Assembly: GCA_963708135.1 (NCBI GenBank)
Contig: OY970192.1
Coordinates: 5,216,001 to 5,280,000, forward strand
Source: an uncultured Gemmatimonadales bacterium
Lineage (GTDB): Bacteria; Gemmatimonadota; Gemmatimonadetes; Longimicrobiales; RSA9
Direction of reading: 5' to 3'
DNA length: 64,000 nucleotides
In this document: positions 34,009-43,162 of the stretch, in pieces
Position numbering within the stretch: position 1 is the stretch's first letter
How the letters are laid out: every line of letters begins with the position of its first letter
The notes under the pieces: model-generated
The model's input: only the letters and a program-made list of their open reading frames with translations
Database searches by the model: none
What the model was told of the DNA's origin: nothing
Position numbers and translations under genes: made by a program

Positions 34009-34081
34009 CTGGGGCGGCAGGGTTCGAACCTGCAACCTGCCGGTTAACAGCCGGCCGCTCTGCCTGTTGAGCTACGCCCCA
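34009..34081 (-). tRNA. tRNA-Asn (GTT), CCA not encoded
   Basis: Cloverleaf TGGGGCG/CGCCCCA, D-arm GCTC/GAGC, anticodon arm GCCGG-CTGTTAA-CCGGC, T-loop TTCGAAC. Confidence 0.97.
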
Positions 34082-38235: not shown

Positions 38236-39996
<1,761 letters not shown>

Positions 39997-40149
39997 GACG
40001 GTCTGGAGTGGAGTGGGAGAGTGGGAGAGCGGGAGAGCCCGGGCCGACGGCGCCGCGAATGCGGAGCGCCGGGCCTCGCGCCCTTCCGGCCCTCCCCGGT
40101 GGCCCGGGTGCTGGTGCCAGGCCGCCCGGGTGCTGGGTGCCAGGCCCGG

Positions 40150-40430
40150 ACCGGCCGCCGGAATCGCCGGCGCCGCCGTTTCGGTGACCGGCGTCCGCCG
40201 CAATCGTCGCCCACTCTCCCACTCGGGGGGTGGTCGGGGGGGCGGAAAGGGCGGGAAGGCGCGGCACCGCTCCGGTGACCCGTGGCGCCGGAATCGCCGG
40301 CGCGCCCACCTGGCCCGGTGACCGGCGTCCGCCGCAATCGTCGCCCGGTCTCCCACTCTCCCACTCTCCCACTCTCCCACTCTCCCACTCTCCCACTCTC
40401 CCACTCTCCCACTCTCCCACTCTCCCACTC
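40150..40430. repeat. Duplicated roughly 100-bp module ending in (TCTCCCAC)x10
   Basis: GCCGGAATCGCCGGCGC and GGTGACCGGCGTCCGCCGCAATCGTCGCCC each occur twice; ten octamers at 40349-40428. Confidence 0.9.
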
Positions 40431-40477
40431 GGGGGGTGGTCGGGGAAGGGCGGAAAGGCCGGGGGGAGTCAGGCAGA

Positions 40478-40770
40478 TGCAAGAACCCCCGGCAGCCGGA
40501 CAAGTCCGATTACCGGGGGTCCCTGTAACTGGCGAGAGCCGAGGTCCGCTGGGTTCGGTACCACGTCTTGCGACGCGCCCGGAACCTCCTCTCTCTTCTC
40601 CTTGCCACGCGGCCCGTGGCTCGGGTGCCCCTTGGCCTGGGGCGTCGGCTGCGGCCAGTCGCCTCGCAGTCGGCTCACCGTGTTCCGAACCGCCGGTGAG
40701 CGGCCTCCGGAAAGCGTCCCTTTCGGAGGCGACGTCCTCGGGCGGTAGGCCGCCCGCCCGCTGACGTCTG
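40478..40770 (-). ncRNA. Candidate stand-alone structured ncRNA, about 290 nt
   Basis: Promoter upstream, consecutive hairpins, terminal ACCCCCGG/CCGGGGGT stem, no credible CDS. Confidence 0.6.
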
Positions 40771-40776
40771 CGAACA

Positions 40777-40805
40777 ATGATACTCCCACCCCCGCCCTCG
40801 GTCAA
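40777..40805 (-). promoter_or_regulatory. Sigma70-type promoter TTGACC-N17-TATCAT
   Basis: 5/6 match in both boxes with 17-nt spacing in a very GC-rich background. Confidence 0.8.
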
Positions 40806-41196
40806 GCCTTTTCGACGATCCCGTAACATTATGTAGCATAATGCGTTACACTAATCGTCCCGGAAAGCGTCGATGCCCGCGCAGGAGTCCACACCGCAAC
40901 CGCCCGGCCCCCTTTCACTTCCCCGCTTGTAACAATTTCAATTCACAGAAATTACCATTCTTTCCACGAGCAACAGCGAGATGTCCACGCTCGCTGGCCG
41001 CTTTCCACGCGCTTTCCACGAGCGGCTGTGGAGAAAGCACAGGAGGGGGTCCGGCGGACGGCCGCTCTTGCGGGCGGCGTGCGCACGGCGCCACCTTTGG
41101 CGGCAGAGCCGACCGATCCGGTCGTCGCCTCGCGGCGGTCCGCCGAGGCGGCGGCAGCCAGGATTCAACAGATACCCCCGCCATCCGGAGGAATCC

Positions 41197-41604
41197 ATGC
41201 CGAAGCGTCGTTTCGTGCCCGTGCTGGCGGGCCTGGCCACCGCCCTGCTGCTGGCCGGCTGCGGCAGCAGCGACTCGACCGGCCCGACGACGGACCTCGC
41301 GGGGAGCTACACGCTGCAGGCGCTGACGATCAGCGGGCAGTCGGTGCCGGTCCCGACGTTCGCGACGGGTACGCTGGTGCTGACGGCGACGACCTACAAC
41401 GTGAACGTGGCGGTCACGATCCCGGGGCAGGAGACGACGTACGCGGACCAGGGGACGTATACGGTCTCGGGCAGCACGTGGACGCAGACGTCCACGGTCA
41501 CGCAGGGGCAGGTGACGACGGGGACCTACAGCCAGAGCGGGAACACGCTGACGGTGAACGTGGAGGTCGAGGGCCAGGCCACCTCAATGGTCTGGGCGAA
41601 ATAG
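41197..41604 (+). CDS. Small beta-rich lipoprotein (lipocalin-like)
   Basis: GGAGG RBS, lipobox LLAGC, LAGSYTL and GTYTVSG motifs. Confidence 0.75.
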   Translation: MPKRRFVPVLAGLATALLLAGCGSSDSTGPTTDLAGSYTLQALTISGQSVPVPTFATGTLVLTATTYNVNVAVTIPGQETTYADQGTYTVSGSTWTQTSTVTQGQVTTGTYSQSGNTLTVNVEVEGQATSMVWAK

Positions 41605-41797
41605 GGACCTCCGGCTGTGCGCGCGGGCGCGCCTCACGCAAGCCCGGCGAGGCCGGCGCCGAACGGGGCGCCGGCCTCGCCGCATCCCGCGGGCTGGCGC
41701 CCGCGTCCGTCCCTCAGCTGCTTCCCCCGCGCACCTTCCGCCTCAGGAGACGGGCTCGCAGCGGGGAAAGGGGCGTTTGCGGCGGCCGGCCGGCCCC

Positions 41798-43162
41798 TCA
41801 GGCGTCGTCGCCTTCCAGGCCGTATTCGCGCATCTTGCGCCAGAGGGTCGTGCGGCTCATGCCCAGGATCTCGGCGGCGCGGGTGCGCACGCCCCGCGCC
41901 TCCTCGAGGGCCGCCACGATCATTGAACGCTCGTGCCCGCCGGGCGCCGGACCCCGGTAGCGCGTCTCCGGCTCCGGCTCGCCCTCGGCCCCCGGGCGCC
42001 GGGCGGACCGCACCTCGGGCGAGAGGTGGTGCGTCTCGATGCGCCGGCCGTCGCTCCGGATGGCGGCGCTCTCCACCACGGAGAGCAGCTCGCGCACGTT
42101 GCCCGGCCAGCCGTAGGCGCGCAGCAGCCGGAGCGCATACGGCGAGCACGCCGTGGGCGCCTCCGGCAGGCGCTCGCCCAGCCGGCGCAGCGCGGCCTCG
42201 ACGAGCAGCGGGATGTCGCCGGGCCGCTCGCGCAGGGGAGGCAGCCGGATGGAGAAGACGTTCAGCCGGTAGAAGAGGTCGGCGCGGAAGCGGCCGGCCG
42301 CGCTCTGCTCGCGCAGATTGCGGTTGCTGGCGGCGACGATGCGCGCGTCCACCTTCTGAGCGCGGACCGCGCCCACCGGCGTCACCTCGCCCTCCTGGAG
42401 CGCCCGCAGCAGCCGCTGCTGGAGCCGCAGGCTCATATCGCCGACCTCGTCGAGGAAGAGCGTGCCGCCATGCGCCGCCGCGAACAGCCCCTGCTTGTCG
42501 CCCACCGCGCCCGTGAAGGCGCCGCGCACGTGGCCGAACAGCTCGGACTCGAGCAGCCCCTCGGCCAGCGCGGCGCAGTTCACCGGCACGAACGGGCCGC
42601 TCCGGCGCGGTGAGAGCGCGTGGATCGCCCGCGCCACGAGCTCCTTGCCAGTCCCCGTCTCGCCCTCGATCAGCACGGTGGTGTCCACCGGCGCGACCTT
42701 GCGAATGGCGTCGAAGACGCGGCGCATCGGCTGGGCGTAGCCCACCATCCCCGGGATCTCCCCCGCCTCGACCCGATCCGCCGCCGGGCGCCGCTCGAGG
42801 AGCTCCGCCACGCGCGCCGAGAGCAGGTCGGGGTCGACGGGCTTGGTCAGGAAGTCGTCCGCCCCCAGATGCAGCGACTGCACGGCGGAGTCGATCGTGC
42901 CGTAGCCCGAGATCATCAGCACCGGCACGTCCTCGCCGCGGCGCCGCAGCACCTCGACGAAGCCGATCCCGTCCAGTCCCGGCATGCGCAGGTCCAGCAG
43001 CACGGCGTCATAGGCGCCGCGCTGCATCGCCTCCGCGGCCTCCTTCACGTTTGCGGCATCATCCACCCGATAGCCGTCCTGCCGCAGCAGCTCCGCCGTC
43101 GAGACGCGGAACGCGCGGTCGTCATCGACCACCAGAATGCGATGTGGGGACGTCGTGCTCAC
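41798..43162 (-). CDS. Sigma-54-dependent response regulator (NtrC family)
   Basis: REC domain, GETGTGKE, GAFTGA, FRADLFYRLNV, WPGNVREL, Fis-type HTH. Confidence 0.95.
   Translation of the reverse strand: MSTTSPHRILVVDDDRAFRVSTAELLRQDGYRVDDAANVKEAAEAMQRGAYDAVLLDLRMPGLDGIGFVEVLRRRGEDVPVLMISGYGTIDSAVQSLHLGADDFLTKPVDPDLLSARVAELLERRPAADRVEAGEIPGMVGYAQPMRRVFDAIRKVAPVDTTVLIEGETGTGKELVARAIHALSPRRSGPFVPVNCAALAEGLLESELFGHVRGAFTGAVGDKQGLFAAAHGGTLFLDEVGDMSLRLQQRLLRALQEGEVTPVGAVRAQKVDARIVAASNRNLREQSAAGRFRADLFYRLNVFSIRLPPLRERPGDIPLLVEAALRRLGERLPEAPTACSPYALRLLRAYGWPGNVRELLSVVESAAIRSDGRRIETHHLSPEVRSARRPGAEGEPEPETRYRGPAPGGHERSMIVAALEEARGVRTRAAEILGMSRTTLWRKMREYGLEGDDA

Follow-up and report, generated by a model that had tools for sequence, protein, structure and literature searches.

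A 64,000-nucleotide (nt) stretch from the genome of an uncultured Gemmatimonadales bacterium (contig OY970192.1, positions 5,216,001 to 5,280,000; hereafter the window) carries on its minus strand what sequence comparison identifies as a real, previously uncatalogued RNA gene and a new RNA family. The gene family, its structure and covariation, its copy number and distribution, and the conservation of its promoter and of an upstream DNA module all emerge from the alignment of homologues. The locus is tentatively read as one of five paralogues, in the source genome, of a compact, stand-alone RNA of ~290 nt that would act in trans, bind protein and, in the copies called type A below, be governed by the upstream module. 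New, as used here, refers to an RNA that falls in no known family. The source genome (G000) is a single contig (C1) of 5,445,952 bases with 72% G+C and is 97.65% complete. Homologues were found with two covariance models, R1 (built from 14 sequences of 9 genomes) and R2 (built from 40 diverse core sequences). The gene and its promoter are placed as follows (positions of the window):

40476..40773, minus strand: RNA gene, full-length match to model R1 (258 bits)
40800..40805, minus strand: -35 hexamer TTGACC, from a promoter scan
40777..40782, minus strand: -10 hexamer TATCAT, from a promoter scan, with a 17-nt spacer to the -35 hexamer

The promoter is the only one that the scan returned between 39800 and 41300 (TTGACC-N17-TATCAT, 10 of 12 matches; 0.0 expected from shuffles), exactly as a preliminary description of the locus, made from the letters alone, had proposed, and by its sequence is of a near-consensus sigma-70 type. 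Transcription would proceed leftwards from ~40770 to ~40478 and yield ~290 nt. At the far end, the closing hairpin P9/P9a followed by UUCUUGCAUC would serve as an intrinsic terminator. The same strand holds no gene downstream, only repeats and, beyond them, a convergent amidohydrolase gene whose 3′ end is at 39996, in agreement with the earlier argument that the RNA is not the leader of a protein gene.

The minus-strand sequence of 298 nt folds at -168.3 kcal/mol, whereas its dinucleotide shuffles average -139.5 ± 5.69 (z = -5.06; 0 of 200 as good); for the plus strand of the RNA region, z is -2.69 and 3 of 200 shuffles are as good. All eight helices listed in the preliminary description are present in the minus-strand sequence. 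The RNA is modeled as about ten helices (P1 to P9a) locked by two pseudoknots (PK1 and PK2):

40731..40768, minus strand: P1, GACGUC/GACGUC (40768-40763 with 40736-40731), enclosing hairpin P1a
40703..40730, minus strand: hairpin P2/P2a, CCUCCG/CGGAGG (40730-40725 with 40708-40703), with the near-invariant loop GGGACGC
40673..40701, minus strand: hairpin P3, CUCACCG/CGGUGAG (40701-40696 with 40678-40673), whose loop GUUCGG (40690-40685) is a strand of PK1
40646..40672, minus strand: hairpin P4, CUGCG/CGCAG, with the conserved loop GAGGYNACUGGCC, in which ACUGG (40659-40655) is a strand of PK2
40627..40643, minus strand: hairpin P5, GCCCC/GGGGC, from fold and covariation
40604..40620, minus strand: hairpin P6, GCCACG/CGUGGC, from fold and covariation
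40562..40577, minus strand: hairpin P7, CGCGUC-GCAA-GACGUG, from fold and covariation
40534..40595, minus strand: long-range helix P8 of the minimum-energy fold, GAGAG (40595-40591)/CUCUC (40538-40534) and AGGU (40587-40584)/ACCU (40545-40542)
40553..40558, minus strand: 3′ strand of PK1, CCGAAC, pairing with the P3 loop
40528..40532, minus strand: 3′ strand of PK2, CCAGU, pairing with the P4 loop
40483..40522, minus strand: closing hairpin P9/P9a, ACCCCCGG/CCGGGGGU, paired in 96.3% and 93.8% of alignment cells (helices 13 and 14)

The domain formed by P1 and P1a is the most variable one in distant homologues. P8 encloses both P7 and the 3′ strand of PK1, and the compensating changes noticed in it by eye lie outside the formal count given below. 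Near-invariant unpaired nucleotides occur at two places: the loop of P2a (GGGACGC) and, in the loop of P4, its 5′ half (GAGG).

The preliminary description had suggested covariation as a check on the structure, and covariation turned out to be strong. With 14 sequences, RNAalifold predicted 64 pairs, 38 of them with compensatory changes. A larger alignment (A3) holds 58 homologues aligned to R1, in 57 distinct rows; in these rows, standard pairs fill 92.6% of 4135 cells and changes on both sides occur in 67 of the 75 pairs that make up the R1 helices and the two pseudoknots, counts that lean toward the R1 helices because A3 was fitted to R1, with the exception of the pseudoknots, which R1 does not contain. 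The covariation score of 0.485 was reached by 0 of 500 shuffles (0.189 ± 0.005), a contrast inflated by kinship among the sequences; the fairer control, in which partners were slid by 1-3 columns, also fell far below it (0.057-0.085). Both pseudoknots were added to the structure after a scan of column pairs and were thus absent from the model used to build the alignment. PK1 (helix 7) is paired in 87.4% of cells with double changes in 5 of its 6 pairs (for instance, GAUCAG/CUGAUC and GUUCAG/CUGAAC). PK2 (helix 9) is paired in 95.8% of cells, and in its first pair (202-459), 31 rows have A-U and 18 have G-C.

No catalogued family accounts for this structure. The 4227 families of Rfam 15, applied at gathering score to the whole 64-kilobase (kb) window, matched nothing but one tRNA gene (34009-34081, minus strand, 69.4 bits); at E ≤ 10, the region 39900-41300 gave two chance-level matches, both outside the RNA, and none to a riboswitch or ribozyme family. 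Twelve homologous loci from other genomes likewise gave no Rfam match at E ≤ 0.01. These searches bear out the earlier view of an unrecognized multi-hairpin noncoding RNA (ncRNA), and also its statement that signatures of RNase P RNA, transfer-messenger RNA (tmRNA) and signal recognition particle (SRP) RNA are lacking: ARAGORN found neither tRNA nor tmRNA in 39000-42000, and RNase P RNA (RF00010, C1:3382505-3382908, 257.7 bits), tmRNA (RF00023, C1:1854512-1854879, 166 bits) and a probable SRP RNA (RF00169, C1:953877-953973, 32.9 bits, below the cut-off of 40) sit elsewhere in the genome. The tmRNA model also gave several short matches below its threshold (15-39 bits), clustered at G000:C1:5377496-5379992 and 1814792-1847802, which may be tRNA-like elements or a tRNA array. 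A keyword search of the literature, which covered main texts and would pass over other naming, found no such RNA reported in Gemmatimonadota or Gemmatimonadetes; in a study of ncRNAs in 50 genomes, the string ‘Gemmatimon’ occurs 0 times in the main text (PMC11109978).

Neither coding capacity nor genomic context offers another explanation. Whichever of the six frames is read, only 13-22 of the 58 homologues keep it open over the full length of the RNA, and the lengths of the homologues modulo 3 are split 15/23/20, which rules out a conserved small open reading frame as the explanation of the region. Flanking Pfam families vary among the 14 loci scanned, and no consistent same-strand gene lies downstream, either at these loci or when the 58 loci are compared, so that a riboswitch or another cis-acting leader was rejected. 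The next gene downstream is convergent both at the window copy and at a syntenic type B locus, where it is rnhA. Pfam scans of flanking DNA detected no family of transposase, reverse transcriptase, IscB or TnpB, and a guide RNA of IscB/TnpB (HEARO/omega RNA) or a retron msr-msd was rejected for want of such a flanking gene and of an Rfam match. A distant blastn search gave no match in plasmids. Viral contigs gave a single, chance-level match, on a contig as long (20,583) as that of a Robbsia match from the 19-mer search described below, which agrees with R1 at the seed only.

Homologues of the RNA, which the preliminary description had proposed to seek in related genomes, occur in four families of the class. 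In G000, BLAST returned the window copy (100%), a second copy with 98% identity (5366438-5366829), a third with 74% (4171169-4171475) and a partial match, and R1 returned five full-length copies (258, 258, 235.9, 96.2 and 88.1 bits), the two lowest-scoring at 2165671-2165969 (96.2 bits) and 1437509-1437767 (88.1 bits). Of 24 other genomes in the same family (f1), 9 gave a BLAST match to the RNA; two sister families gave none (0 of 16). Across the phylum, R1 found it in 23 of 151 genomes, G000 counted (f1 1 of 1, f2 9 of 16, f5 9 of 31, f4 2 of 71, f3 1 of 2), with four matches that are weak or confined to the terminator (the one in f3, G025 of f2 at 21.7 bits, G139 of f4 and G136 of f5), and in 0 of 29 genomes of the remaining seven families. 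Outside f1, a genome that has the RNA usually carries one copy. The survey with R2 covered 41 + 5 + 3 genomes; the RNA was present in 6 of the 41 class genomes (f1 1 of 1, f2 2 of 7, f5 2 of 2; none in f3, f4, f6, f7 and f9), and three further genomes had 5, 3 and 2 copies, with three copies in tandem in one of them. The tallies by BLAST, R1 and R2, like those for RF00013 and the 6S-like gene below, include the unpublished genomes G015, G016, G019 or G026, of which G015 supplies one sequence of alignment A2/model R1; no conclusion rests on these genomes alone.

Beyond the phylum, an exact 19-mer was searched in one genome per species (185,579 species) and found at 54 loci. A strong R1 match accompanies it at 36 of them, and all 36 come from records titled as Gemmatimonadota lineages (Gemmatimonadota, Gemmatimonadetes, Gemmatimonadales, Gemmatimonadaceae or Longimicrobiales). 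At the remaining 18, in other phyla, R1 matches nothing or the 19-nt seed alone, and ~17 chance matches are expected by our own arithmetic. As far as searched, the RNA family thus appears restricted to Gemmatimonadota.

The history of the copies can be followed at two points. Identity between the window copy (copy 1) and its 98% twin (copy 2) extends over window positions 40156-40952 (~800 bp) and ends inside the upstream module, beyond which the boxes differ; this tract looks like the product of gene conversion. The sole recurrent neighborhood, E2 acyltransferase-lipB > RNA < rnhA-carA, is shared by the 88-bit copy of G000 (copy 5) and five single-copy loci of f2. The arrangement marks copy 5 as an orthologue of the f2 gene. 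The flanks of the lower-scoring copies in G214 and G216 did not yield this neighborhood. The amplification and homogenization of copies suggest that the dose of the RNA matters.

The homologues fall into two types according to the DNA that precedes them. Type A comprises 37 high-scoring homologues, the window copy and the copies 98% and 74% identical to it among them; type B comprises 20. In all type A copies, a conserved architecture reaches to ~245 nt upstream of the RNA start (a module of ~230 nt). Read from 5′ to 3′, it opens with an inverted TTnTCCACA (about -241) and continues with three direct boxes of the GTGGAnAA type (about -225, -204 and -193), whose spacings of 21 and 11 nt put them in helical phase. 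Then come the AT-rich block TGTGAATTGAAAnTGTTACAA (-173 to -152), an imperfect palindrome GTAAC..TTG..CAA..GTTAC (about -75 to -47), the -35 element GAAAGGCTTGAC and the -10 element TATCnT. At the window copy, the elements upstream of the promoter are placed as follows:

40823..40849, minus strand: probable operator, an imperfect, AT-rich palindrome (GTAAC...GTTAC) at about -75 to -45 relative to the start of the RNA
40927..40947, minus strand: conserved AT-rich block TGTGAATTGAAATTGTTACAA, about -175 to -152
40960..41035: array of five DnaA-box-like 8-9-mers (four in direct orientation on the minus strand, one inverted)
40960-67, 40981-88, 41001-08 and 41012-19, minus strand: direct boxes GTGGAAAG, GTGGACAT, GTGGAAAG and GTGGAAAG
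41027-35, opposite to the direct boxes: inverted box TGTGGAGAA

A consensus of 36 upstream regions (55-80% identity or better) keeps the boxes tT.TcCACa, GTGGA.AAc, GTGGAaA and GTgGa.AA, then TGTGaATt.aaa.TGTTACAA, the palindrome, and gCTTGACc / TAtC.Ttg, and the columns between these elements are unconserved. GTTACA stands at a fixed distance in 37 of 37 type A copies versus 0 of 20 type B copies, at least two GTGGA lie at -300..-160 in 35 of 37 versus 0 of 20, and the -35/-10 pattern is found in 35 of 37 versus 4 of 20; TTGAC lies within the 70 nt that precede the RNA in 30 of the 37. The module is missing from type B and from every copy in other families (0 of 20), yet these copies keep the RNA structure, which argues that the RNA is selected for itself. 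A different arrangement was observed among the homologues of f5 and its kin (L085-L093, L096 and L104), which have no type A module and carry another palindrome, TTCAGGGAATTCCC-like, ~30-45 nt before the RNA; it suggests a different regulator or sigma factor.

The textbook consensus of the DnaA box is TTWTNCACA. The boxes of the module fit this consensus, and perfect boxes of the TGTGGATAA type are found at many type A loci. They may thus be DnaA boxes, and DnaA is the best guess for the protein that would bind the phased array. A linkage of type A loci to dnaA or oriC was sought in G000 and G214 and not found, and GC skew is too noisy to place the origin. Elsewhere in G000, an AT-rich intergenic stretch (C1:4157097-4157205, 47% G+C) contains the only near-consensus DnaA-box cluster of the genome (TTGTCCACA, TGTGGATAA and TTTTCCACA), 9 kb from dnaA (4148050-4148535); the cumulative GC-skew minimum, which is noisy, lies near 4.01 megabases (Mb). 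The stretch is a candidate oriC or DnaA-regulated promoter, and the organism therefore seems to use the usual DnaA box. Besides ordinary dnaA, an open frame of 836 residues at G000:C1:2196173-2197768 has two Bac_DnaA (PF00308) matches; frames with a double Bac_DnaA domain also occur in G214, G216 and G218.

Together these features shape the tentative reading given at the outset. The near-complete pairing, the two pseudoknots and the invariant exposed loops argue for recognition of the RNA as a folded particle and not through a linear antisense seed. The RNA would thus be neither a plain antisense RNA nor a leader; it would act in trans, binding a protein or another macromolecular partner as a ribonucleoprotein (RNP) scaffold or regulator, with the near-invariant exposed loop GGGACGC and the GAGG half of the P4 loop as the likely contact surface. 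The fixed module of type A, in turn, suggests that several DNA-binding proteins keep transcription under tight control. With its phased DnaA-box-like array, its AT-rich block and its palindromic operator at a fixed distance, this module would govern the transcription of type A copies and would tie the level of RNA to the replication initiator or to the growth state.

Several observations weigh against this reading, in addition to the leanings of the covariation counts described above. R2 matched nothing in 35 of the 41 class genomes, and the family is therefore patchy or too divergent for R1 and R2. No neighboring gene recurs among the 58 loci except within one order, and context indicates no partner protein. 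At the window copy, 1 of 5 boxes (41027-41035) comes within 1 mismatch of TGTGGATAA; TGTGGAnAA occurs at 26 sites in G000, about the number expected from base composition by our own arithmetic, and is not enriched; and type A loci are not near dnaA (414 kb in G214, 23 kb to 1.2 Mb in G000). The closing hairpin is missing from the list returned by the terminator scan, because the scan needs 5 U in 8 and the tail UUCUUGCA offers 4. The 3′ end is therefore only inferred, and of the promoter and terminator that the preliminary description assigned to the gene, the first was recovered by scan and the second stands as a hairpin present at the expected place.

Among the alternatives, a catalytic or ligand-sensing RNA fares best, unlikely as it is. 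The RNA would be a ribozyme, or a riboswitch-like sensor that acts on its own terminator and so sets the amount of a trans-acting RNA. Its complexity is high for its size, with two covarying pseudoknots and near-invariant loop nucleotides, and the 3′ strand of PK2 ends only ~6 nt before the terminator stem; therefore formation of the pseudoknot could be coupled to termination. However, no riboswitch or ribozyme family of Rfam 15 matched at E ≤ 10, the downstream gene is inconsistent among loci, no convincing antiterminator alternative was found, and no processing site or substrate is indicated. A ligand or catalysis is thus less likely than a protein or RNP partner. An extended form of the favored reading, in which box-bound DnaA would set transcription of the RNA, the RNA would bind a core machine (as an RNP scaffold or ribozyme) and up to five gene-converted copies would tune the dose, joins replication or growth to the RNA in one circuit peculiar to Gemmatimonadota and is improbable as a whole.

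A base-pairing small RNA (sRNA), with the conserved single-stranded stretches as seeds for mRNAs, appears quite improbable. Several sRNA families are multi-copy, as this RNA is, and the stand-alone gene with its own promoter and terminator and its conserved loops would suit such a role. However, the RNA is unusually long and almost entirely paired (75 counted pairs in ~290 nt), and the best-kept loops are taken up by intramolecular pseudoknots.

There is little to recommend the possibility that the upstream DNA is itself the functional element, with the box array and AT block titrating or reactivating DnaA or serving as an origin-like site, or that the RNA primes or modulates initiation through an R-loop. 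The boxes lie ~21, 11 and 20 nt apart, with an inverted box and an AT block, at a fixed distance in 37 of 37 type A copies; one type B copy is convergent with rnhA, and the 74% copy (copy 3) is 23 kb from dnaA. Conversely, the module is absent in type B (0 of 20) and in other families that keep the RNA structure, transcription heads away from the boxes and stops at the hairpin, the boxes of the window copy match poorly, and the type A loci of G214, the sole other genome with both on one contig, are far from dnaA.

An RNA polymerase-binding regulator of the 6S or Ms1 kind is held in still lower regard. Ms1 of Actinobacteria is described as an RNA of ~300 nt, encoded by a stand-alone gene and confined to one phylum, all points of likeness to the present RNA; it is 6S-like, with a central bubble and a pair of short hairpins at the termini, and is found where 6S is absent (PMC9130861). 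The strong promoter and the stand-alone gene also fit. In addition, RF00013 matched 0 of 14 RNA-positive genomes, and the RNA was found in 0 of 9 tested genomes with an RF00013 match (one below cut-off), although for two sets of 6 genomes among 41, zero overlap has a chance of ~1 in 3 by our own arithmetic. This apparent exclusivity proved to be an artefact of the insensitivity of the Rfam model. RF00013 matches only families f9 and f13, and weakly f3, within the class and gives no match in G000. In f9 and f13, the 6S gene lies between pheT-zapA and rny-ymdB, a position at which the zapA-rny gap of G000 measures only ~138 nt, which at first pointed to a loss of 6S. A profile of six class 6S RNAs, however, matches G000 at C1:3446895-3447027 (E = 1.5e-5), a locus that RF00013 misses at E ≤ 1. 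It lies outside the window (C1:3446880-3447058, minus strand; L150/L151), not at the pheT-zapA-rny position, and has promoter-like and terminator-like flanks of its own. Among 24 other f1 genomes, 22 have a single copy of this gene; aligned with bona fide 6S RNAs, its RNA forms a rod of 45 pairs, of which 21 show compensatory changes. A divergent 6S-like gene is thus present alongside the new RNA, whose role as a 6S substitute was rejected. 6S RNA (RF00013) resembles it in being an abundant-looking stand-alone gene with a strong promoter and class-wide conservation but is a rod of ~180 nt with a closing stem, a large central bubble and a terminal stem, whereas the new RNA is ~290 nt, compact, multi-branched, without a central bubble and held by two pseudoknots. 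The fold also differs from that of Ms1, beside which no 6S occurs, and nothing beyond size appears to favor an Ms1-like role. That the Rfam model misses the 6S RNA of this family matters wherever the loss of 6S is deduced from Rfam scans.

It is very improbable that the element is a selfish or functionless repeat whose good folding only reflects a genome of 72% G+C. Copy number varies from 2 to 5 between genomes, tandem arrays occur, two copies are 98% identical over ~800 bp, and dispersed repeats adjoin the RNA. The evidence against it comprises compensation in 67 of the 75 pairs over four families, a locus that is syntenic and single-copy in two families, the conserved promoter, the lack of a mobility gene in the flanks scanned with Pfam, and the lack of a plasmid or virus match. 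The sponge of CsrA/Rsm type raised in the preliminary description is scarcely credible and was rejected: a six-frame search of the whole of G000 with PF02599, positive in the controls Escherichia coli, Bacillus subtilis and Thermotoga maritima, gave 0 matches to CsrA, and of the 9 GGA triplets of the window copy, several of which sit within stems, only the one in the conserved GGGACGC hairpin loop (40719-40717) is widely kept (48 of 57 homologues, against 1-29 of 57 for the other eight).

Other known systems place the RNA, read as a trans-acting folded particle, in context. The raiA motif RNA, OLE, ROOL and GOLLD are orphan large structured ncRNAs of bacteria, all of them Rfam families. Like the present RNA, they are stand-alone or loosely linked, several hundred nt long, rich in helices with covarying pseudoknots and restricted in lineage, and their function is not evident from context. 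The present RNA differs from them in that it matches none in sequence or structure, belongs to another phylum, is multi-copy, and has its own sigma-70 promoter and, in type A, the upstream DNA module. CsrB, RsmY and RsmZ are also multi-hairpin, stand-alone RNAs, often in several copies, but they carry many GGA in loops and need CsrA, whereas here a single GGA is conserved and no csrA was found. CcnA of Caulobacter is described as an ncRNA that is located at the origin, is presumably activated by CtrA and base-pairs with the ctrA and gcrA mRNAs (PMC8959179). The type A copies would share with CcnA, as so described, the logic of an ncRNA gene beside sites for a master regulator of replication or the cell cycle, a likeness and not homology; unlike CcnA, type A loci are not at the origin, their sites are DnaA-box-like, and the RNA is far more structured.

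Gemmatimonadota are abundant in soil and little studied, and the keyword literature search found no description of their ncRNA biology. RNAs of such size and complexity, here ten helices and two covarying pseudoknots conserved in four families, have earlier proved to be ribozymes, RNP scaffolds or global regulators. Since no catalogued family matches, the RNA forms a defined new target for work on structure and function. The DnaA-box-like module, if real, would be an unusual link from the replication initiator to a structured RNA.

Two further features of the neighborhoods were observed. Two of the five G000 copies adjoin 2-oxoacid dehydrogenase genes: copy 3 (L078, G000:C1:4169669-4172967) lies between a convergent E2 gene, 20 nt away, and an E3-like gene, and copy 5 (L080, G000:C1:1436009-1439267) directly follows E2-lipB. 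The arrangement may be accidental or may reflect a block duplication. Just downstream of the window copy, a repeat zone (40156-40470) contains an 8-nt tandem repeat CTCCCACT of 10 exact units (40350-40429), with an inverted partner at 40011-40037, and a unit of ~45 nt that occurs twice (40182-40224 and 40316-40358). The ~20-nt core of this unit is found at 16 places in the genome and arrays of at least three 8-mers at 21 places, and the whole looks like a dispersed repeat resembling repetitive extragenic palindromes (REP) or miniature inverted-repeat transposable elements (MITE), unrelated to the RNA.

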